Of a DNA stretch of 64,000 nucleotides, positions 7,285 through 52,340 are shown piece after piece. Within the stretch, counting starts at the first letter, position 1; each line of letters opens with the position of its first letter. The notes beneath the pieces were generated by a model. The model made no database searches, was not told the DNA's origin, and was given only the letters and a program-made list of their open reading frames with translations. Origin of the DNA: Candidatus Kaiserbacteria bacterium (lineage in GTDB: Bacteria; Patescibacteriota; Minisyncoccia; Phycocordibacterales; UBA2100); NCBI GenBank assembly GCA_016186695.1, contig JACPLC010000001.1, positions 109,718-173,717 of the forward strand, given 5' to 3'. Position numbers and translations under genes: made by a program.

Positions 7285-7752
7285 ATGGAACACGAGCACA
7301 AGGCAGGTGGACCGCTCGACTACAACTACATTGCCGACGGCATTTACGCAGGGACCAACCAATGTTGTGCCCTCGGTCTCGCAGAAGTTTTGAAAAAAGA
7401 AGGGATTACTGCCGATATTTCACTCGAGGATGTTAGTCTCGATCATCCGTATGGGGTGAGCATGTACGCTTGGATTCCGACCGCCGACGACACGCCTCCG
7501 ACACAAGATCAGCTCATGTTTGGCGTACGGACGCTCGAAGAAATTATCAAACAAAAAAGAAAAGTGTACGTGCATTGCAAGAATGGACACGGACGCACAA
7601 CGACCCTTGTCTCCGCATATCTCATTTATCGTGGGGCAACGCCTGAAAAAGCGATTTCGCTTGTAAAGGCAAAACGGCTGACGGTGCACCTGCAGGATAG
7701 CCAGCGGCAAGCGCTCGAAGAGTTCGCGGCATCTGTGCTATCGACGAGATAA
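7285..7752 (+). CDS. Dual-specificity / protein-tyrosine phosphatase-like protein
   Basis: CX5R catalytic loop VHCKNGHGRT. Confidence 0.75.
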   Translation: MEHEHKAGGPLDYNYIADGIYAGTNQCCALGLAEVLKKEGITADISLEDVSLDHPYGVSMYAWIPTADDTPPTQDQLMFGVRTLEEIIKQKRKVYVHCKNGHGRTTTLVSAYLIYRGATPEKAISLVKAKRLTVHLQDSQRQALEEFAASVLSTR

Positions 7753-7801
7753 AAATATTGCAATGAGAGCACCAATTTGCGGATAAGATACACTCTTAGC
7801 T

Positions 7802-7999
7802 ATGCATCTCGTCACGACAACACTCGATGCTTTAGGGACGATACTCATCGGTATTGCGGCGTTGAGCGTGCACCGACGCGTACTGCGAGATGAAAAGATA
7901 AGCCGCAAGGTTGTCACTTCGATGCGTCGCGAGCAAATGATCGGTGTGATCGGGATAGGCATGATCGCAGTTAGCTACGTGCTGAAATTGATCGCATAA
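7802..7999 (+). CDS. Hypothetical small membrane protein
   Basis: 65 aa with two hydrophobic helices. No motif found. Confidence 0.3.
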   Translation: MHLVTTTLDALGTILIGIAALSVHRRVLRDEKISRKVVTSMRREQMIGVIGIGMIAVSYVLKLIA

Positions 8000-8001
8000 T
8001 C

Positions 8002-30058: not shown

Positions 30059-31138
30059 TCAAGATACCTTGCCGGAGATCAATACATTGTCTCCGAATCT
30101 CATGACAGAGACATCGTTCAAGCGGGATGCGCCGTGGAGCGTCCGCACACCCCTACCTCCGATCGTCGAGGCATCCTTTCCGCCGATGAGGACCGGAGCA
30201 TAGAATGCGTAGACTCGATCGAGAAGCCTTTCATCAAGAAAGCTGCCGATAGTCTTTCCACCCCCTTCCACGAGAATACTCACGATGTTTCGTTTTCGGA
30301 GTTCTCTGAGAAGTCCCCGAAGCGGAATTCCCTTGCCTTTGAATAGGAGAATTGTACTACCGCGTTTCTCCAAAGCCATTTTTTTGCGTCGTGGGGCGCC
30401 GAAAGATGCCGCGATCAGTACGTTCTGGTCGCGGAGCACTTTGGCGGAGAGGGGAATGCGAAGGTCCGGATCGAGAATAATTCGCAGGGGGTCTCTTTTC
30501 CCCTGTGCACGTACGCCCAAGTGCGGGTCGTCAGAGAGAATAGTCCTGATTCCGACGAGCACCGCTTGGTAGCTTCCACGGAGACTTCGTGCATACGCGC
30601 GCGCCTCTTTATTCGTTATCCACTTCGAATCTCCCGTACGTGTTGAGAGTTTGCCATCGAGACTCGCGGCATACTTGAGCCCAATAAAGGGTCGTTTTTT
30701 CCGGTGGAAGGTGAAAAATGCCTCGTTCAGCGCTCTCGCTTCGTTCGCGCACGCGCCAACGCGCACGGGAATACCTGCCTTGCGCAGTCTCGTAATCCCT
30801 TTTCCGTTCACGCGTGGGTTGGGGTCTTTCGTCGCGCAGACGACGCGTTTGATTCCCGCTTGTATGATCGCGTCAACGCACGGCGGTGTTTTGCCGAAAT
30901 GTGCGCACGGTTCCAGGTTTACATATAGTGTTGCACCTCGCGCTCCCTCTCCCGCTTCCGAAAGCGCCTCGATTTCGGCGTGCGATTTTCCTGCGCGCTT
31001 GTGGAAACCACGTGCGGTAACGCGTGTGCCTTTCACGATTACCGCTCCAACCATCGGGTTGGGGTTCGTCCAACCCGCACCTTTTTTGGCAAGGCGGAGC
31101 GCTTCATGCATGAGGGTTTCGTCGAATCGCGGGGCCAT
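30059..31138 (-). CDS. ribD: Bifunctional riboflavin biosynthesis deaminase/reductase (diaminohydroxyphosphoribosylaminopyrimidine deaminase and 5-amino-6-(5-phosphoribosylamino)uracil reductase)
   Basis: CMP/dCMP deaminase zinc motif HAEIEAL...EPCAHFGKTPPC. C-terminal reductase domain. Confidence 0.88.
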   Translation of the reverse strand: MAPRFDETLMHEALRLAKKGAGWTNPNPMVGAVIVKGTRVTARGFHKRAGKSHAEIEALSEAGEGARGATLYVNLEPCAHFGKTPPCVDAIIQAGIKRVVCATKDPNPRVNGKGITRLRKAGIPVRVGACANEARALNEAFFTFHRKKRPFIGLKYAASLDGKLSTRTGDSKWITNKEARAYARSLRGSYQAVLVGIRTILSDDPHLGVRAQGKRDPLRIILDPDLRIPLSAKVLRDQNVLIAASFGAPRRKKMALEKRGSTILLFKGKGIPLRGLLRELRKRNIVSILVEGGGKTIGSFLDERLLDRVYAFYAPVLIGGKDASTIGGRGVRTLHGASRLNDVSVMRFGDNVLISGKVS

Positions 31139-33725: not shown

Positions 33726-34751
33726 CTAGCGATCCAAGCCCAAACTGATGCCGTTGATGATTTGAGGAATAATGTGAACAAGCGGCCCAGCTGATCCACG
33801 CTCGACGTATATTCGTAACTCCAACATGCTATCGCCGCGATCTATCAATAGAATAGCGGAAAAATAAATGAGAGAATCAAATTCCTGCATCCCGTAGAGC
33901 CAATACACCGGCAAGTTGTTCAGCGTACTTTTTGTTGTGCTCGAAATGTCCATTCTACGCTGCGACGACCACTTCTTCTGATAGTTTTGTGCGTACGAAT
34001 CAAACGTCGCGCCATATGAGTCGAATTGCATACTAGTATCGTAGAGATACCTGATCATTCCTATGTGTACAATGCCAACGCTATTGCCTCTTCTATCTTT
34101 GCCGACGAGGTTTATAGATTTTAGAGGACCGGATGAGAAATCCTTTTCCCACCCTTCAGGGTAAGGAACACTCAATGTGCTGCTTGGGTCATCAGAAATC
34201 CAGTCAAGCCGTGTCCAGAATTCGCTTGGGATAACTGCCGTCGAGACAGTAAAAGAGTATGGGTTATCCAAGCCTAGATCGGATGAATAGCATAGAAAAG
34301 AGTATTCGCCGTCCCATTCACATGCCGAGAAATAAGGTCCGCCGAAGGTGTCGGCATTTGAGGCGGTGTATGATTTTTTATCATGGTCGAAATTGAAATC
34401 GCCAAAATATCTGTCATTTTCCAGAACTGAAAGACTAAAAGGATACGTACCGTGTTCTCGCTTGTATGTATCAATAGCAGTCGCCACCTGGAAAAGGCTC
34501 AGTGAATTTTGTTGCGGAGTAGTTTTCAGTTCTCCACCATCGGATGTGCCGAACATATTTTGTTGCTCTCTAAGTGATGGCCCGTTCTGAGCATTTATTT
34601 GCGTAAGAAATGTGCTTTCAGGTGTTGGTAAAGAGGTGGCCGTGGTTCTCGCAGGAGAGCGAAAGACCCAAAAAACGATGCCGAGCAGAGCTGCAATTGT
34701 TACAAAGACAGCAACGTAGATACCGAAATGTGTATTGTGCTGCGGGTTCAC
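33726..34751 (-). CDS. Hypothetical membrane-anchored/secreted protein, compositionally atypical (about 45% GC versus about 58% in the flanks)
   Basis: N-terminal TM helix. Rich in Ser/Tyr/Asp/Gly. No recognised domain. Clear local GC drop. Confidence 0.6.
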
Positions 34752-37401: not shown

Positions 37402-37476
37402 GGGCGGGAGCGTTTTCCGCCTGCGGGACTCGCTTCGCTTCGAACAAGGTCCTCGGCGAAAAAGCGCTCCTGCCCT
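37402..37476 (+). repeat. Structured intergenic repeat family, copy 2 (downstream of ftsX)
   Basis: GGGCGGGAGCGTTTTCCGCCTGCGGGACTCGCTTCGCTTCGAACAAGGTCCTCGGCGAAAAAGCGCTCCTGCCC. The outer arms are complementary. Confidence 0.7.
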
Positions 37477-37514
37477 CACTAGGCACTCTCACTGCCCGCT
37501 CGTGGATTGTGTGT

Positions 37515-40283: not shown

Positions 40284-40373
40284 GCGAGGACGGAGATCGT
40301 TTTCCGCCTGCGGGACTCCCCGCCGGCTGGCGGGTCGAACAGGTCCTCGGCGAAAAAGCGCTCCCGTCCTCGC
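40284..40373 (+). repeat. Structured intergenic repeat family, copy 3 (downstream of guaB-like)
   Basis: Outer stem GCGAGGACGGAG.../...CTCCCGTCCTCGC. Core TTTTCCGCCTGCGGGACTC and GAACAGGTCCTCGGCGAAAAAGCGCTCC. The internal hairpin is replaced by CCCGCCGGCTGGCGGG. Confidence 0.7.
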
Positions 40374-40420
40374 TGATAGGAGAAAATTGCATTCAATACC
40401 CTGTATCGTAAAGTGCTCGC

Positions 40421-41362
40421 ATGAACAGGGTCGTGCTTGGTGCAGCAGCCGTCATCGCGGCCGCATGGCTTTTGATACTTCCGGTTTCGGACACCAGAGA
40501 TTTCGTTCGTCCTGTGCCGGTGATGCCGACTCCCACACCGGAGCCGCGAGCTTCTATTATATTCGGCGGCGATCTGATGTTCGACCGCTCGATCCGAACC
40601 GCCATGGAACAGCACGGAGAAGATTATATTTTTTCCTGCATTGAGGGTGTACTGCAAAGCGCGGATCTCGTGGTAGCAAACCTCGAGGGGCCGATCACCA
40701 CGCACCCGTCAAAAAGTATCGGTACGAAGGTCGGCGGGGAAGGGAATTATACTTTTACATTCCCGATCTCGGCCGCTGCACTACTCTTCCGCCATAACGT
40801 TCGATTGGTAAACATCGGCAACAACCACGTCATGAATTTCGGCCGCGAGGGCCTTGCGCAGACCAAATACTGGCTTGATGAAGCAGGGGTCCTCTATTTC
40901 GGTGAGCCGGATCTTAGCGAGACGGATCGCGTTGAAAGGATCTCGGTGAATGGAATTCCTTTCTCGTTCGTGAACTGGAGCGACTGGACCTCGGATAAGA
41001 CAGATCACACGGTCGCACAGGTACGCGAAGAGGCGGAGAAGGGAAACATCGTCGTCGTGTTTGCACACTGGGGAGACGAATACGTGCCGGCGCCGGAACG
41101 CGTCAAGGTTCTTGCGCGGCAATTCGTCGACGCGGGAGCGGATATTGTCATTGGTGCGCATCCGCACGTTGTACAGGAGCACGAAATCTATCAGGAGAAG
41201 CACATCTACTACTCGCTCGGCAATTTTGTTTTTGATCAGTACTGGAGTGAAGCCGTGCGACGGGGACTTCTGCTTCGCGTCGAATTTACTCGAGAAAGCG
41301 TCGCTTCAGTGGAAGAAATTCCCATTGATAATCAGACTGATCGTCGGACGTGTGCGGGATGA
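40421..41362 (+). CDS. capA: CapA family protein (PGA_cap metallophosphatase-like, poly-gamma-glutamate/capsule-associated)
   Basis: N-terminal TM helix. Calcineurin-like metallophosphatase motifs (GGDLMFDR, GNNH, GAHPH). Confidence 0.75.
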   Translation: MNRVVLGAAAVIAAAWLLILPVSDTRDFVRPVPVMPTPTPEPRASIIFGGDLMFDRSIRTAMEQHGEDYIFSCIEGVLQSADLVVANLEGPITTHPSKSIGTKVGGEGNYTFTFPISAAALLFRHNVRLVNIGNNHVMNFGREGLAQTKYWLDEAGVLYFGEPDLSETDRVERISVNGIPFSFVNWSDWTSDKTDHTVAQVREEAEKGNIVVVFAHWGDEYVPAPERVKVLARQFVDAGADIVIGAHPHVVQEHEIYQEKHIYYSLGNFVFDQYWSEAVRRGLLLRVEFTRESVASVEEIPIDNQTDRRTCAG

Positions 41363-41828
41363 CGCGTTCGCCGAGGAGCGAGAGAAATTCCTTGCGCCGA
41401 TCTTCGCGTCCGATGTCCCAGAGATGCCAAAGAGGGTAGCACTCCGGCGTGTACTCGTAGTGTCCGCGAACTTCCCGGTCTTCAAAAATGCGAAGGTGAT
41501 ATTGGAAAACGAAGTCTTTCACCAGACGCAAACTCACTATCTCTCCGTCGTCCTCCCACGCGACGCGATGATAGGCGTAGCCCTTTTCGATGAGGTATGC
41601 GACAAATTCTTCGATAGAAAGATGCGGTGCGACCGTGCCGAGAAGGAACGGCTGGCGGCCCCGGTTTTTGATGAGGCTTAGCGCAATGACGCTGTCGCGC
41701 ACCGTCGGATGATACGGTGTGTAGTAGTACCAGAAGTAGTACTTGATGCGGTGCACCAGTGAATCGGGATAGACCATCTCCGAGTGGGGGATTTTTTCTA
41801 TGAGCGCACGACGATCATGGGGCGCCAT
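41286..41828 (-). CDS. Hypothetical protein (Trp/Tyr-rich); 3' end overlaps the capA 3' end by 77 nt
   Basis: 180-aa ORF with no recognised motif. Convergent overlap with capA. Confidence 0.4.
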   Translation of the reverse strand: MAPHDRRALIEKIPHSEMVYPDSLVHRIKYYFWYYYTPYHPTVRDSVIALSLIKNRGRQPFLLGTVAPHLSIEEFVAYLIEKGYAYHRVAWEDDGEIVSLRLVKDFVFQYHLRIFEDREVRGHYEYTPECYPLWHLWDIGREDRRKEFLSLLGERVIPHTSDDQSDYQWEFLPLKRRFLE

Positions 41829-42005
41829 ACATGTACTTCGTCGCGTATTGTATCAGGTGATATTGTTCCCGTGCAACGACGCGGCGTTGAAGGGACCGCG
41901 TTTTTGCAGTATTCTCAACGAATTGCGGATCTCGCCGGACGTGTCTGTCCACAGAGGGAGGGTTCTGTTTCTAAACTTTGTTCCAGAACCCGTATACTGT
42001 AATCA

Positions 42006-42350
42006 ATGCCATACATTGATCGAGAAAAAAAGCGATTGTATGACCAAAAGTGGAACAGGGAATATTATCGTAACAATCGGAAATCAGAGATTGCGCGAGT
42101 CAGAAAAAGAAAACAGGAACTTCGTGATTGGCTGGATGCGTACAAGACCAAACTCAAATGTGAAATATGCGGCGAGAAGCACCCAGCATGCCTTGATTTT
42201 CATCATAGAGATTCCAGTAAAAAAGATTTTTCGATCGGCGCTATAAAAGAATATGGGTGGGGCAGGGAAAAAGTACTTCTTGAGATACAAAAGTGCATGG
42301 TAGTATGCGCCAACTGCCATAGAAAAATACATGCGAGTAGGCTAAAATAG
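42006..42350 (+). CDS. HNH endonuclease family protein, low GC (about 40%)
   Basis: HNH zinc-finger pattern CEICGEKHPACLDFHHRD...CANCHRKIH. Lys/Arg-rich N-terminus. Ends 9 nt before tRNA-Gln. Confidence 0.7.
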   Translation: MPYIDREKKRLYDQKWNREYYRNNRKSEIARVRKRKQELRDWLDAYKTKLKCEICGEKHPACLDFHHRDSSKKDFSIGAIKEYGWGREKVLLEIQKCMVVCANCHRKIHASRLK

Positions 42351-42358
42351 GCAGGAAT

Positions 42359-42429
42359 TGCGGGATCATCTAATGGTAGGATGCGACTCTCTGGAAGTCG
42401 TCATCTTGGTTCGAATCCAAGTCCCGCAG
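42359..42429 (+). tRNA. tRNA-Gln (anticodon CTG)
   Basis: Acceptor TGCGGGA/TCCCGCA. D-arm ATCT...GGAT. Anticodon stem CGACT/AGTCG with loop CTCTGGA. T-arm CTTGG TTCGAAT CCAAG. Confidence 0.75.
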
Positions 42430-42631
42430 TCAGGCAAATTTACACGCCTTGACTAGCGCGTGGTCGAATAACGACTCTGCTGAGTCATAAAATGGAAATG
42501 AGCGAACAAAATAGATTCGAACCACTGGTGTCAGGCGAGCTTCACTTGCATTTCAAGTATGGCATGGTACCTTTTAAGTACAGTTGGCTTCGGCCTCACC
42601 CCCGCAAGGGGGAGAATATGTGGAAAGGCCG

Positions 42632-43015
42632 TCAGAGCAATCCTCTGGCGGCTTTTCTCAATCGGGCGAAAATATTCTTATCAAGAAAGCCGACCTTTTC
42701 CGCAAGGCGGCGTGTATCGATAACCCGCAACTGGGATAGGTTGGCTCGTGCCGGACGACCGTCAACCACCCCAATAGAGACACGAAGTGGATGCTCGCGG
42801 GCAGAAGTGGTGAGCGGTGCGACGAGACAAGCATCAGGGCCGAACCCGCGCAGTATGAGTGCCGGGCGGAGAAAATTATCACCTCGCCCGTCTTGTTCAG
42901 ATCCCACGTTCACACCAAGTCGGCACCACCATATTTCGCGAACGGTATAAAGGCGGGGAGGTTCCGCGTTCGTTTGCTTCTTCAGTGTATTCCATCGATC
43001 AAAATCTTTCTCCAT
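42632..43015 (-). CDS. PemK/MazF-like toxin domain protein; no cognate antitoxin gene evident upstream
   Basis: Pattern REIWWCRLGVNVGSEQDGRGDNFLRPALIL...PLTTS resembles the PemK/MazF core (GEIWLVSLDPTAGHEQQGTRPVLIV...PVTS). N-terminal extension of about 25 aa. Confidence 0.5.
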   Translation of the reverse strand: MEKDFDRWNTLKKQTNAEPPRLYTVREIWWCRLGVNVGSEQDGRGDNFLRPALILRGFGPDACLVAPLTTSAREHPLRVSIGVVDGRPARANLSQLRVIDTRRLAEKVGFLDKNIFARLRKAARGLL

Positions 43016-43094
43016 ATACGCGCAGGAATTATAACATCACAAGTGCGGTCATCTGTGGATGAGACGTTTGCCTGTGTGGCACAATCTCGGGTCT

Positions 43095-43331
43095 ATGAAA
43101 AAACCCGACAAGAATTATTCTGCAGCAGTGCCGATCGCTGACGAGCGCATTGAGGAGTTTCGACGTATTTACAAAGAAGCATACGGGGAGGAGATTTCAG
43201 TAGGCAACGCGCGAATAATGGCGCTGCGTCTCATCACGCTTTATCGATTACTCATGCAGCCGCTGCACGGCGAAGGCTCTTCGTCTCCTTCACAAGACTC
43301 TCCGGCTCAAAGCGCTGACGAAGCGTCCTGA
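43095..43331 (+). CDS. Hypothetical small protein (78 aa), divergent from the MazF-like gene
   Basis: ORF only. Confidence 0.25.
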   Translation: MKKPDKNYSAAVPIADERIEEFRRIYKEAYGEEISVGNARIMALRLITLYRLLMQPLHGEGSSSPSQDSPAQSADEAS

Positions 43332-43477
43332 TATTTTCGAGTATGCCCTGCCCGTCTTCGGTGTGTAGCATGGCAGAAATTTCTTTCGTTAAGCGATTGA
43401 ACCAGCGTTTCTTGCCAATTCGGCTAAAAGTTCTAACATCGTCGATGACTCCCAGCCAAATTACAGCCAAATTAGGT

Positions 43478-43804
43478 ATGAGTGATGTAATAATCGGAAA
43501 AGGGAATTTGGCAGGAAAGGGCGTGTATGCAAATCGAGATTTTAAAGCGGGAGAAATTGTAATTCAGTATCACCTAAAATCTTTGACGGAGGAAGAATTT
43601 CAGAATCTTCCTGAAAGTGAAAAAGAGTTTACTCATATCTATCGTGGAGTCATTCGTCTTTATTCAGGACCAGAACGATACGTTAATCATTCCGCGAATC
43701 CCAATACCTCTCAAGATCTAGAAAACGGGCGAGATGTAGCTTTGCGCGATATTAAGAAGGGGGGAGTGATCACGACTGACGCGACTAAGGATGACTCCAA
43801 CTAG
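43478..43804 (+). CDS. SET-domain protein (putative lysine methyltransferase), low GC (about 42%)
   Basis: GKGVYANRDFKAGEIVIQY is a SET N-region. RYVNHSANPNT corresponds to the NHSxxPN motif. ALRDIKKGGVITTD is post-SET-like. About 108 aa from the internal ATG. Confidence 0.6.
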   Translation: MSDVIIGKGNLAGKGVYANRDFKAGEIVIQYHLKSLTEEEFQNLPESEKEFTHIYRGVIRLYSGPERYVNHSANPNTSQDLENGRDVALRDIKKGGVITTDATKDDSN

Positions 43805-43858
43805 CCTCCAGATTGGTTCCAATATCGTATCAGACGGCCAGCAACCGAGCATGAGCAA

Positions 43859-43885
43859 TTGACTTTGGACAGCTTGCAATATAAA
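43859..43885 (+). promoter_or_regulatory. Putative promoter (TTGACT N15 TATAAA) upstream of the cold-shock gene with a long 5' UTR
   Basis: Hexamers seen in sequence. Cold-shock genes typically have long structured leaders. Confidence 0.3.
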
Positions 43886-44022
43886 TACGTCATGATACTA
43901 TTGCTACATCATTTCAGGGTGATCCAGAGAAGCGGGGATCGACCTTCAACTCCACTCACTGTATTTGATCGATCGAAAATATTTCGGTCGCGATTATCAG
44001 TCCAATCTATTCTTCCATTGCT

Positions 44023-44226
44023 ATGCAAGAAGGAACAATTGCCCGTCTCACCGATAAGGGTTTCGGGTTTATCTCTCGCGAGGGACAGGAAAAAGATCTC
44101 TTTTTCCACTCCAACGAGCTCGTGAATGTTAAGTTCGATGAGCTTCGCGAAGGAGACAAAGTGACTTTTGAAGTCGCGGACAGTCCGAAAGGACCGAACG
44201 CGGTGAAGGTCAGCCGCGTTTCCTAA
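44023..44226 (+). CDS. Cold-shock protein (CspA family, S1-like OB fold)
   Basis: RNP1 KGFGFI and RNP2-like FFH motifs. 67 aa. Confidence 0.88.
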   Translation: MQEGTIARLTDKGFGFISREGQEKDLFFHSNELVNVKFDELREGDKVTFEVADSPKGPNAVKVSRVS

Positions 44227-44291
44227 AGTAAAAGCGCTCCGTATGGGGCGCTTTGCATATAAGTGTTTCTGGTCTGAATTTCGTATTCTGT

Positions 44292-44297
44292 TATACT
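44292..44297 (+). promoter_or_regulatory. TATACT -10 hexamer 7 nt upstream of the HlyD-family gene ATG
   Basis: Sequence tgtTATACTgccgcaaATG. Confidence 0.3.
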
Positions 44298-44304
44298 GCC
44301 GCAA

Positions 44305-45852
44305 ATGCAAAAAATCCTCGCTCATATACGCGCGAACGCTGTGGTCTACGGCGGCGTTGCCGTCGTGCTGCTCGGCGCCGGGTTTCTGTTTTCGAACAGT
44401 AAGAACGGCAAGGAGGAGCTCCTTACGGTTACGGCCGGTGCCTTCGTGCAAGAGGTAAGCGTGTCGGGAAAGGTGATAGCCGCTCAAGACGTGGACCTCG
44501 GATTCTCGCAGGGCGGTCGTGTTGCCGGCGTATATGTGAAAGTCGGCCAGCAGGTACAAGCGGGAACCACTCTCGCGGAGCTCGATAACGGCGATCTACG
44601 CGCGAGTGTCTTGCAGAAGCAAGCCGCTCTGGAGCGCGAGAAGGCATCGCTTGCACTGCTGCGCGAGGGAACACGGTCGGAAGAGGTGGAAATTGCACTC
44701 TCTGAAGTGAGGAGTGACGAAACGGAGCTCACGCAGAAGCGTAATTCGCTTGTTGAGGCGGTAAAAGACGCATTCAGCACGTCGGATGATGCCGTGCGCA
44801 ACACTATTGACCAATTCATCAGCAGTCCGCGAATCGATCCCCAAATCAATTTCATCGTGAGTGATATTCAACTCGAAACCAAGGTCGAGCACACACGCCT
44901 TGCGATGGAAAGCGTGCTCGCGCTCTGGCAGAGGAACGTGGAAGGGCTTGCAGCCGATTCCGCGCTCCCAGGTGCGGTCTCGGAGGCGCAGTACAACCTC
45001 TCGCAAGTTGCCTTGCTGCTGACGGATGCCAACACTGTTCTCAATAAGGCAGTGCCAACGGGGAGCAATACGCAGGCAGTAATCGACGGTTACGAGACTG
45101 ACGTCGCCGCCGTGCGCGCTGCTGTGAATGTCGCCGCCTCGGCCCTCGTTTCTGCGATAACCGCAGAGAAAAATGCAGTCTCGGCACTCGAAACTTCACG
45201 CAGGAGTCTCACGCTTAAACAGGCAGGCACGCGTGCAAGTGACATTGATGCGCAGGAGGCGGATGTGAAAGTTGCGGAGGCCGACCTTGCAAACGCGCAT
45301 GCGCAACTAGGGAAGACGATCATGCGGGCCCCCTTCACGGGGGTCGTCACAAAAATGGATCTCAAGATCGGACAAGTAGCATCCGCGAGTGTTTCGGACG
45401 TTTCCATGATCTCTTCCGGCACGTTCCAGATAGAAAGCTTTGTTCCCGAGGTGAACATCGCTCTCATCGAAGTCGGTGACCCGGGGAACGTGACACTTGA
45501 CGCATATAGTGCAGATGTCGTATTTACCGCGCGCATTATTTCTATCGATCCTGCAGAAACGACTCGCGATGGTGTTTCTACGTACCGTTCACTTCTCCAG
45601 TTTTCTGAAAACGATCCCCGTATCAGACCGGGAATGACGGCTAACGTTGTTATCAAAACCGACGAGCGTGCCGGTATAATCAGCGTCCCGCAGGGGATCG
45701 TTTTCGAGCGTGGTGGCAAAAAGTATGTCCGTGTGAAGATCGGTAAGGAGATTGAGGAGAGAGTGGTAACGACGGGCGCTGTCTCGAACCTCGGCAACGT
45801 TGAAATTCTTTCGGGTCTTTCGGAGGGCGAGCTAGTCGTGCTCTCGCCGTAG
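44305..45852 (+). CDS. HlyD-family periplasmic adaptor (membrane fusion protein) of a MacAB-like efflux system
   Basis: N-terminal TM helix. Long coiled-coil hairpin. Beta-barrel and lipoyl-like domains. 515 aa. Confidence 0.75.
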   Translation: MQKILAHIRANAVVYGGVAVVLLGAGFLFSNSKNGKEELLTVTAGAFVQEVSVSGKVIAAQDVDLGFSQGGRVAGVYVKVGQQVQAGTTLAELDNGDLRASVLQKQAALEREKASLALLREGTRSEEVEIALSEVRSDETELTQKRNSLVEAVKDAFSTSDDAVRNTIDQFISSPRIDPQINFIVSDIQLETKVEHTRLAMESVLALWQRNVEGLAADSALPGAVSEAQYNLSQVALLLTDANTVLNKAVPTGSNTQAVIDGYETDVAAVRAAVNVAASALVSAITAEKNAVSALETSRRSLTLKQAGTRASDIDAQEADVKVAEADLANAHAQLGKTIMRAPFTGVVTKMDLKIGQVASASVSDVSMISSGTFQIESFVPEVNIALIEVGDPGNVTLDAYSADVVFTARIISIDPAETTRDGVSTYRSLLQFSENDPRIRPGMTANVVIKTDERAGIISVPQGIVFERGGKKYVRVKIGKEIEERVVTTGAVSNLGNVEILSGLSEGELVVLSP

Positions 45853-48880: not shown

Positions 48881-48996
48881 ACGCAGAAGCGGAAGCGTTT
48901 CTCGCCTGCGAAACTCGCTTCGCCCGTCACACGCACCGCGTGTGGTCGGGCTTCGCTCAAACAGTCCTCGGCTTCAAAACGCTTCCACTCCTGCGC
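48881..48996 (+). repeat. Structured intergenic repeat family, copy 4 (long variant, downstream of the MFS gene)
   Basis: Outer stem GCAGAAGCGGAAGCGTTT/AAACGCTTCCACTCCTGCGC. Core GCCTGCGAAACTCGCTTCGC plus an extra internal hairpin CACACGCACCGCGTGTG, then TTCGCTCAAACAGTCCTCGGC. Confidence 0.7.
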
Positions 48997-51804: not shown

Positions 51805-51810
51805 TGTGGT

Positions 51811-51917
51811 GAAGCGCAGCAGTTTTGCGGCCTGCGGAACTCGCTTCGCCCGTCACACGCACCGCGTGTGGTCGGGCTTCGCTCAGACAGTCCTCGGCAG
51901 CAAAACTGCTGCGCTTC
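51811..51917 (+). repeat. Structured intergenic repeat family, copy 5 (long variant, downstream of the histidine kinase)
   Basis: Outer stem GCGCAGCAGTTTTGC/GCAAAACTGCTGCGC is complementary but differs in sequence from the copy-4 stem. Core is near-identical to copy 4, including the CACACGCACCGCGTGTG hairpin. Confidence 0.7.
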
Positions 51918-52340
51918 AGCTGCGGCGACGCGAACGAGTCCGCGACGCCTTCATTTCTGATTCATGGCTACTCGGTACCATGATACGCGGAACCTTTGCT
52001 CCTTCTCTTTTCGAGGCGCCGCCCCGAGTGTGGGGCGGTGGCTCTCGGGAAGGTTATCAATATCCATACCCCACCATGTCACAGAGAATGGGGAAACTGT
52101 CCTTCATTCTGACGCGGAAGATAATCGCGTCAGCCGGGGAGGCGAGAGCTCTAAGGAGCCTCGCCTCCCCGGCGTATGAGGGGAAAACCGTTGGTTTCGA
52201 GCTCCTCGGCTCGGAAATGCGCAAGTAGCTTACGCATTTCTCTCACTTTACGTCGCTCGTAAGAAACAAGCATACATTTCGTCTTAATGAAGCGGAGGGA
52301 TTTTATCCCTCCTTTAACTTAGTAATCTATCTATTGAAGT

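Follow-up and report, generated by a model that had tools for sequence, protein, structure and literature searches.

Among the described toxin-antitoxin (TA) systems, three kinds stand closest to the locus considered here. Type I systems in which the two transcripts run towards each other and overlap 3' to 3' include par (Fst RNA I/RNA II) of Enterococcus pAD1, as well as TxpA/RatA and BsrG/SR4 of Bacillus subtilis. Type II includes MazEF, PemIK and Kid-Kis, and the type III toxin ToxN has a Kid/MazF-like fold. The locus was analyzed within a 64-kb stretch of a Candidatus Kaiserbacteria genome (candidate phyla radiation, CPR), hereafter the window, and comprises a gene for a MazF/PemK-like endoribonuclease and, convergent with it, a predicted gene for a small RNA (sRNA) of ~80 nt, which is probably the antitoxin of MazF. 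As a predicted system, this mazF-sRNA module is a variant of RNA-controlled TA systems not seen before, and a literature search for MazF with an RNA antitoxin in CPR bacteria found nothing. Positions given below are those of the window, and labels of the form L### denote retrieved comparison loci. The features of the module are:

42546-42573 (+): promoter of the small RNA, with -35 TTGCAT (42546-51), a 16-nt spacer and -10 TACCTT (42568-73), recognized by family conservation
42580 to ~42659 (+): candidate small RNA, ~80 nt, recognized by covariance model, fold, covariation and strand test
42632-43015 (-): MazF/PemK-like endoribonuclease, 127 aa including a 25-aa N-terminal extension, Pfam PF02452
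43028-43036 (-): mazF promoter, extended -10 TGTTATAAT, 12 nt ahead of the ATG, with no Shine-Dalgarno (SD) sequence

Comparison with known toxin-antitoxin systems

As in par, TxpA/RatA and BsrG/SR4, the toxin mRNA and the small RNA would be convergent with overlapping 3' ends, in a compact and mobile module without a protein antitoxin, and, as in par of pAD1, a bidirectional intrinsic terminator appears to be common to both transcripts. The cis-encoded antisense overlap that defines type I is present by prediction, the terminator spanning the last mazF codons and the stop. Unlike in these systems, the toxin is a soluble protein of 127 aa with a MazF-type RNase fold instead of a small hydrophobic membrane peptide (a typical, although not universal, type I trait), and the RNA has a conserved, structured 5' domain without detectable complementarity to the toxin mRNA. 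The toxin fold (by profile) and catalytic residues are those of the type II toxins of MazEF, PemIK and Kid-Kis; in contrast to these systems, the window mazF has neither an adjacent gene for a MazE, AbrB or ribbon-helix-helix antitoxin nor an upstream operon partner, its mRNA is predicted to be leaderless, and its product carries the N-terminal extension and has no homologue in the PDB by phmmer. Similar to the type III systems ToxIN, CptIN and TenpIN, an RNase toxin of Kid/MazF-like fold is paired with an RNA in a mobile unit that may act in defence, whereas the RNA here is single-copy, downstream and convergent, not an upstream tandem array behind a terminator. A tandem RNA repeat array near mazF was found neither by Tandem Repeats Finder (TRF) nor by a repeat search, and PADLOC gave no match to a type III system at mazF.

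A further point of comparison is CjrA, reported as an antisense small RNA serving as type I antitoxin (CjrA/CjpT) on the Campylobacter jejuni plasmid pVir (PMC10470494, PMC7826846). pVir encodes a PemK/MazF homologue of the window protein (WP_011117588.1, pVir 30630-31034; 31% identity, no annotated antitoxin). Downstream, this gene has a hairpin rich in G/C that coincides with its stop codon, and the opposite strand bears a TTGAC box, a layout similar to that of the window module. If CjpT is the pVir MazF homologue, the window module would be a distant member of an experimentally known kind. Similar antisense -10 boxes and hairpins occur in plasmid relatives in Helicobacter, Campylobacter (pVir) and Nitratiruptor. 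Unlike the window module, none of the pVir, Helicobacter and Nitratiruptor plasmid loci gives a hit with the covariance model, and the likeness is one of layout only.

A predicted small RNA gene accompanies mazF, also in distant homologues

The RNA element is linked 1:1 to mazF. It lies directly 3' of the mazF stop codon in 49/49 GTDB loci that have a MazF at least 54% identical and an intact 3' end, and it is present beside every intact mazF homologue in 65 genomes, down to a protein identity of 34%. A covariance-model search of 648 kb of flanking sequence gave 51 hits above 70 bits, each of which abutted a mazF 3' end on the opposite strand. The layout is kept even in homologues of 34-46% identity, including those of Methylocystis and Hyphomicrobium. 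On the strand opposite mazF, the family consensus begins with a sigma-70 promoter, made up of TTGACt, a spacer of 16-17 nt and TAtAaT, and has, 6 nt further on, a start at A; the promoter hexamers occupy fixed positions in 62/62 elements, and the spacer sequence is variable. After the start, ACAGUUGG precedes two hairpins, first C(UUCG)G and then CCCCC(GNRA)GGGGG, from which a linker rich in purines leads to a terminator hairpin of 14 bp and a U-run. The corresponding hairpins of the window RNA are the UUCG hairpin at 42586-95, the GNRA hairpin at 42599-42612 and the terminator at 42624-42656, which is followed by UUUUCU. The mazF stop codon (42632-34) lies inside the 5' arm of the terminator hairpin, and the terminator is common to the RNA and mazF.

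The structure is well maintained in the alignment, where 95.6% of cells are paired and 12 pairs are changed on both sides, values attained in none of 500 shuffles, and RNAalifold independently predicts the same three hairpins. The first hairpin covaries in the homologues of 34-46% identity (GCC-UUAG-GGC, GGCC-GCAA-GGCU and GGAC-AUGC-GUCC), the loop of the second is GNRA in 41/49 sequences, and ACAnnUGGCUUCGGCCU in the 5' domain shows no variation among 50 sequences. For the window RNA, the minimum free energy of folding is -42 kcal/mol (z = -5.4). The strand is also clear: read antisense to mazF, the alignment contains 73 G-U pairs and 47 mismatches, as against 19 and 101 on the mazF strand; UUCG and GNRA loops are valid on the antisense strand only; and the covariance model scores the window RNA at 97 bits and the other strand at 20 bits. 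Reading frames through the element vary between loci. Judged by these patterns, the element is predicted to be an RNA gene on the strand opposite mazF. When 41700-44400 was searched with cmscan against Rfam 15 (E up to 10), only the tRNA, a chance match to CRISPR-DR57 (E 0.75) and one miRNA match were returned, with no family for the RNA (the pemK motif included), and nothing relevant was found in the literature on the pemK RNA motif.

Several further observations were made around the element. A tRNA-like remnant was considered for a GGTTCGAATC stretch on the minus strand at ~42500-42600, where neither ARAGORN nor Rfam found a tRNA. A viral scan for the 16-nt RNA core pattern yielded 120 stretches, which are regarded as chance matches because none has a MazF gene. 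In L029 (5838-5923), an sRNA-like element scoring 59 bits follows a gene for a 586-aa surface protein, just upstream of a complete mazF-sRNA module. A DnaA-box-like motif, TTATCCACA with up to two mismatches, precedes the sRNA promoter at a constant spacing in 22/62 modules, compared with 6.8 expected and a maximum of 14 in 200 shuffles; it lies 8-20 nt upstream of the sRNA -35 in L004, L013, L014, L016, L021, L022, L034 and others. The DnaA-box-like site of the window is found at ~43054-43063 on the minus strand (TCATCCACAG).

A divergent MazF without a protein partner

The assignment of the toxin to the MazF/PemK family, which the original prediction had proposed for checking by profile, is confirmed by Pfam (PF02452 PemK_toxin, E 3.3e-13, 50.2 bits against a cutoff of 23.1, positions 3-106 of 109) and by a MazF-like PHROG (1.8e-13), and the family profile reaches B. 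subtilis EndoA at 2e-4. Alignment with hhalign places R50-P51 at R25-P26 and T69 at T48 of B. subtilis MazF, in which R25 and T48 are catalytic, and R50, P51 and T69 are invariant among 33 homologues. Judged by these invariant Arg and Thr equivalents, the protein is predicted to be a catalytically competent toxin. By sequence it is a member of a divergent branch, and clustering at 50% identity divides the family (E up to 1e-10) into 885 clusters. The 25-aa N-terminal extension is conserved in the family; it is acidic, contains a Trp (MEKDFDxWN) and has F5, D6, W8 and N9 invariant. An AlphaFold2 (AF2) model of MazF had a mean predicted local distance difference test score (pLDDT) of 59.5 and was discarded, being too poor to position the extension.

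A -10 hexamer occurs 3-15 nt before the mazF start codon in 35/62 family members, and an SD-like tetramer in 2/62; the distance from the end of the -10 box to the start codon is 6-7 nt in most members and 12 nt in the window. The mazF mRNA is accordingly predicted to have little or no leader, and there is no space for a co-transcribed upstream antitoxin gene because the -10 box directly precedes the mazF start. No antitoxin open reading frame (ORF) lies upstream of the window mazF, as had been anticipated. Across the 65 mazF loci from GTDB genomes, no conserved neighbouring ORF was found, the neighbours being unrelated to those of the window and to one another. The small ORF suggested earlier as an antitoxin candidate (orf90, 43059/43095-43331) is absent from 65/65 other mazF loci and was rejected; it is also divergent from mazF, so that an adjacent, co-transcribed protein antitoxin of the type II kind is lacking at the window locus.

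The module of 0.48 kb is 74% identical at the DNA level between the Kaiserbacteria window and Bradyrhizobium elkanii (GCA_024171165.1), where it falls in the interval 1,666,959-1,675,342 of JALJZH010000001.1. Tandem arrays of two to four mazF-sRNA modules were also observed, the largest in L016 (1-4000, four modules) and others in L004, L010, L025, L038 and L046. These arrays mix near-identical paralogues with others of 36-53% identity, each with its own RNA variant.

The small RNA as the probable antitoxin of MazF

The locus presents an obligate genomic pairing of a MazF that is competent by its predicted active site with a small RNA gene, and with no protein partner. The MazF had earlier been called an orphan; this description no longer holds, because a convergent small RNA gene always accompanies it. 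We infer that both genes are transcribed, that MazF is toxic and that the small RNA neutralizes it as its antitoxin, a reading to which we give a probability of about 0.6. The toxin module would thus be formed by a MazF-type endoribonuclease and a convergent RNA gene of ~80 nt with a common intrinsic terminator. Most likely, the terminator hairpins of the two transcripts, being exact complements, would allow the RNA to pair with the 3' end of the mazF mRNA, and such pairing might lead to decay or silencing of the mRNA, as in type I systems with 3' overlap. Alternatively, the highly conserved 5' domain with its UUCG and GNRA hairpins may bind MazF directly, in a manner similar to type III. Given an antitoxin role, a type I-like mechanism is somewhat more likely than a type III-like one.

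Several points weigh against an antisense antitoxin. The small RNA is itself a prediction, and it overlaps mazF in cis over a short stretch (~25-35 nt) that is tied up in stable hairpins on either transcript. Pairing in trans between the RNA 5' domain and the mazF mRNA was tried and rejected, as it was no better than in shuffled sequences and its site was inconsistent between loci; because the 5' domain has no complementarity to the mRNA, antisense pairing leaves unexplained why this domain is the most conserved. The extra element in L029 does not adjoin mazF. The view taken here is that of a 64-kb window, and an antitoxin may be encoded elsewhere in the genome. In addition, on a Nitratiruptor plasmid an ORF of 62 aa (L264, 1955-2143) that resembles a ribbon-helix-helix antitoxin comes after the gene of a distant MazF homologue (39.5% identity) and is encoded on the same strand, and some branches of the MazF family may use a protein antitoxin.

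Neutralization of MazF by an RNA that binds the protein as a pseudo-substrate or decoy, and not by pairing with its mRNA, is a serious alternative because the most conserved 5' domain neither overlaps nor complements the mRNA, although on balance we consider it unlikely. It agrees with the invariance of ACAnnUGGCUUCGGCCU in that non-overlapping domain, with the maintenance of its hairpin by covariation in distant members and with the Kid/MazF-like fold of ToxN. The RNA, however, has no tandem repeats and its gene does not precede that of the toxin; convergent genes with a common terminator are the hallmark of 3'-overlapping type I systems; and the paralogous modules within one genome (L016) carry the same hairpin, contrary to what specific protein-RNA pairs would show.

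Less probable still is that MazF is controlled in another way, by its own N-terminal extension or by an unlinked MazE, and that the RNA has a different role such as tuning mazF expression while being dispensable for viability. The extension is a hallmark of the family, with its four invariant residues, and an antisense RNA that merely fine-tunes mazEF has a precedent in another system (PMC8749433). This view has to face the 1:1 linkage of RNA and mazF, which is maintained between very distant organisms as well as in each copy of the tandem arrays and is as expected of an obligate partner; the AF2 model of MazF is too poor to locate the extension.

We think it improbable that there is no separate RNA gene and that the element is the 3' untranslated region of mazF with a bidirectional terminator, or a recombination or boundary site of a mobile module. 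The terminator is indeed palindromic and would also stop mazF transcription, the element marks one end of the 0.48-kb mobile module, and the DnaA-box-like motif is often beside it. A terminator or boundary site would nevertheless not call for a -35/-10 pair that faces mazF at fixed spacing in all elements while the spacer sequence varies, nor for G-U pairs that outnumber mismatches, and tetraloops that are correct, on the antisense strand only, nor for the large difference in covariance score between the strands. The small RNA gene with a probable antitoxin role is the preferred reading.

Wider occurrence and meaning

It seems an even question whether the family as a whole, which spans phyla with its 885 clusters and occurs in many CPR lineages, in Alphaproteobacteria and probably on plasmids of Campylobacterota, is one of MazF toxins without a protein antitoxin, each governed by a dedicated, structured and convergent small RNA. 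If so, a toxin fold of type II and an antitoxin made of RNA would be united in one TA class, which travels as a self-contained module of ~0.5 kb between very distant bacteria. Annotation pipelines label MazF as 'type II', and as an orphan where MazE is not encoded alongside; judging from this family, a good number of these orphans could possess an RNA partner that annotation has missed. Should the RNA prove to be the antitoxin, TA types I, II and III would be less sharply separated, and a defined small regulatory RNA would be gained for CPR bacteria, which are poor in known regulators, together with a new structured family for Rfam. The antitoxin idea is directly testable because the module is also present in the cultivable Bradyrhizobium elkanii.

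An insertion hot spot around a native tRNA-Gln gene

The surroundings of the module were compared among 65 related loci retrieved with a lineage-specific neighbour of 180 aa (unk180, 41286-41828) as the probe. The order common to the Kaiserbacteria relatives is CTP synthase, IMP dehydrogenase (IMPDH), CapA, unk180, tRNA-Gln, a variable stretch, HlyD, FtsX, ABC and MFS. As this backbone includes tRNA-Gln, the tRNA is a native, syntenic gene and the anchor of an insertion hot spot; similarity between relatives breaks off directly past its 3' end.

42358-42431 (+): tRNA-Gln(CTG), found by ARAGORN; Rfam tRNA 54.7 bits; adjoins the unk180 homologue in 10 relatives

The locus is a hot spot around this native gene that gathered separate selfish elements, one tRNA gene being exploited on both sides, by homing endonucleases at its 5' end and by a serine-recombinase cassette at its 3' end.

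The cassette at the tRNA 3' end

The mazF-sRNA module is part of a cassette with the following features:

42431-43455: cassette, 1.02 kb, beginning exactly at the 3' end of tRNA-Gln
42431-42440 (+): left att-like repeat CAGGCAAATT at the left junction; 42431 is the last base of the tRNA
42432-42496 (+): left end of the cassette ('L'), 77-89% identical to three segments of L266, two of them directly after a copy of 'R'
43059-43331 (+): orf90 (78 aa from 43095), with its 3' end antisense to the recombinase remnant
43255-43455 (-): remnant of a large serine recombinase, its last 67 codons, forming the right end ('R') and finishing in GACTCCCAG (43447-55)
43453-43473 (+): right att-like repeats CAGCCAAATT, two tandem copies, found by TRF and pattern search

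The remnant matches, at 78% identity (E 3e-37), the C-terminus of a protein of L266 that is 557 aa long and has Resolvase, Recombinase and Zn_ribbon_recom domains. In L266, R is joined directly to L, twice, between other cargo (SLFN/AlbA_2, RelB/ParE) and beside this large serine recombinase, and the break point of the recombinase is identical in L133, L266 and L268. The array layout of L266 (4000-8237) is integron-like, yet serine-recombinase-based. Window 42538-43455 is 73% identical over 930 bp to GCA_040960175.1 (L268), whose mazF appears frameshifted, and 42539-43020 is 74% identical to B. elkanii (L133). The unoccupied site is seen in L073, where CCCGCAG is followed immediately by CCAAGTT and, after 37 nt, by the SET gene. 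The pattern CAGSCAAATT has three copies in the 64 kb, one at 42431 and two in tandem at 43453-43473, compared with 0.32 expected, a statistic that is optimistic because the pattern was defined from the junctions themselves.

With regard to att repeats of the tRNA 3' end, for which a search had been proposed, the 10-mer at the cassette junctions does start from the tRNA 3' end, whereas a 22-mer of the tRNA 3' end has no second copy, and the idea that the att repeat is the tRNA 3' end proper was rejected. Local alignment of the tRNA 3' region with the right end of the cassette also gave a score no better than shuffles, the true repeat being the junction 10-mer.

No functional recombinase gene is present in the cassette, in which the last 67 codons of the large serine recombinase alone are left. 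Given the joined R and L ends, the truncated recombinase and the junction repeats, the cassette is best read as the non-autonomous stump of a serine-recombinase integrative element. It would have integrated exactly at the 3' end of tRNA-Gln, carrying orf90 and the two-gene toxin module as addiction or defence cargo. A total of 18 homologues of orf90 were found, one of which also bears an excisionase-type helix-turn-helix domain, and there are three copies in B. elkanii L133; its product is thus probably a small accessory protein of mobile elements that belongs to the cassette element. The description of the locus as a decayed integrative island therefore applies to the mazF segment, with its truncated serine recombinase and att-like repeats, and not to the HNH and SET genes, which lie outside it.

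A homing-type HNH gene at the tRNA 5' end

On the other side of the tRNA, the following features were identified:

41920-41931 (+): left direct repeat GAATTGCGG-ATC, found by local alignment with 42355-42367
41929-42354 (+): HNH cassette, 425 bp that the closest relative lacks, found by blastn against L068/L069; GC 0.42
42006-42350 (+): HNH ORF, with its stop 7 nt ahead of the start of tRNA-Gln

In the closest relatives (L068/L069, 82% DNA identity), the counterparts of window 41200-41928 and 42355-42429 are contiguous by blastn, so that 41929-42354 is a clean insertion of 425 bp. The direct repeat, GAATTGCGG(G)ATC (12-13 nt), consists of 3 nt of upstream sequence and the first 9 nt of tRNA-Gln, and in L068 it leads straight into the tRNA. 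The predicted nuclease family of the protein is supported by PHROG 3106 (5.3e-27) and PHROG 2255 (5.4e-26), both HNH endonuclease families, and by its sequence (CEICG...FHHRD...CANCHRKIH), which contains the HH...N...H motif and Cys pairs, while no Pfam model, HNH models included, exceeded its threshold. Phage homologues with 39-54% identity were found on 34 contigs. They lie among tRNA genes in 17 of the 26 loci checked, and at least nine of these have an HNH ORF that overlaps a tRNA gene or stops no more than 20 nt from it, in one case a gene for tRNA-Gln(CTG). These HNH genes appear to form a family of homing-type genes that target tRNA genes, with a predicted nuclease activity.

Free-standing homing endonuclease genes are known in phage tRNA clusters, for instance those for SegB in T4 and for HNH nickases in the tRNA region of T5. 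As in those cases, a small HNH ORF stops a few nt short of a tRNA gene and has relatives in phage tRNA arrays, and the site is filled in one genome and empty in a close relative, giving both presence and absence at the same site and a defined target, as expected of a free-standing homing endonuclease. Unlike them, the window gene resides in a CPR chromosome at a single tRNA-Gln, the 5' end of which is duplicated over 12-13 nt. Most probably, an HNH homing-endonuclease gene of phage type entered at the tRNA 5' end, duplicating 12-13 nt of its target. The 5' end of this tRNA gene is, by comparison of these loci, a recurrent target of homing nucleases.

Exactly where the window has the HNH gene, L073 has a gene for a GIY-YIG nuclease together with a 5' piece of tRNA-Gln that has been duplicated (7590-8000, reverse strand). 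The HNH insertion parted tRNA-Gln from its ancestral upstream region, and a promoter-like site in the 3' end of the HNH gene (42320-42348; TAGAAA, 17 nt, TAAAAT) may now drive the tRNA.

A resident SET-domain protein

Beyond the right end of the cassette lies a third gene:

43478-43804 (+): minimal SET-domain protein, 108 aa, Pfam SET; outside the cassette, low GC

Its family was correctly recognized by the original prediction, as Pfam SET is matched at 2.3e-9 (38.1 bits against a cutoff of 22.4) and GKG and NHS, of the GxG and NHS cofactor motifs, are invariant in the family. A post-SET-like tail had also been suggested, but the conserved tail GEMITTDATKDD contains no cysteine cluster and no catalytic Tyr: in the invariant GEMITTDAT, an Ala takes the position of the catalytic Tyr of the C-terminal ELxxDY motif. 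Homologues of 107-108 aa, with 65-81% identity, occur across many CPR lineages in ordinary housekeeping neighbourhoods of low-GC genomes, and the 108-aa start is considered correct because of their length. The public annotation (144 aa) is over-extended by 36 codons, the extension (43370-43477) covering the right end of the cassette and the att-like repeats. The AF2 model of the protein (pLDDT 84) has vSET as its best PDB match, with a template modelling (TM) score of 0.72-0.74. Like vSET of Paramecium bursaria chlorella virus 1, it is a minimal SET domain without pre-SET or post-SET, the match extending over the full length of both; unlike vSET, the CPR family has Ala for the catalytic Tyr, and the sequence identity is 24%. 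This minimal SET protein without a catalytic Tyr is widespread.

In L073, a SET protein of 69% identity is encoded at the same position, 37 nt past tRNA-Gln, with a GC content of 0.408 in a host of 0.54. By these comparisons the SET gene has been at the locus for longer and does not belong to the cassette. Hence the suggestion of selfish or defence genes inserted at the tRNA stands for the HNH gene and the mazF segment, both horizontally acquired, and fails for SET. That HNH, MazF and SET form one decayed island integrated at tRNA-Gln is very improbable: they do share a stretch of 1.8 kb beside a tRNA, HNH has the same GC content as SET (~41%) and a recombinase remnant is present, but HNH stands 5' of the tRNA with its own direct repeats and is missing from the closest relative, the cassette repeats bracket 42431-43473 only, and SET, which falls beyond these repeats, occurs in L073 where there is no cassette, all of which indicates at least two independent insertions on opposite sides of the native tRNA.

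Composition and minor observations

The HNH, tRNA-Gln(CTG), MazF and SET genes were all found at the positions first assigned to them; the accompanying notion of a low-GC islet is right for two of the three protein genes. HNH (GC 0.406, GC at third codon positions (GC3) 0.409) and SET (GC 0.416, GC3 0.358) are more than 5 standard deviations (sd) below the long ORFs of the window (mean GC 0.549, sd 0.025; mean GC3 0.615, sd 0.047), whereas mazF is ordinary in composition (GC 0.542, GC3 0.50). PADLOC found no defence-system match among the islet genes. Elsewhere in the window, another low-GC patch (<0.45) at 33726-34751 (-) is a 341-aa ORF with an N-terminal hydrophobic segment. Intergenic, partly palindromic repeats also occur among housekeeping genes at 37404-37480, 40291-40374, 48889-48995 and 51810-51918; they are 35-77 nt long, up to 95% identical and similar to repetitive extragenic palindromic (REP) elements.

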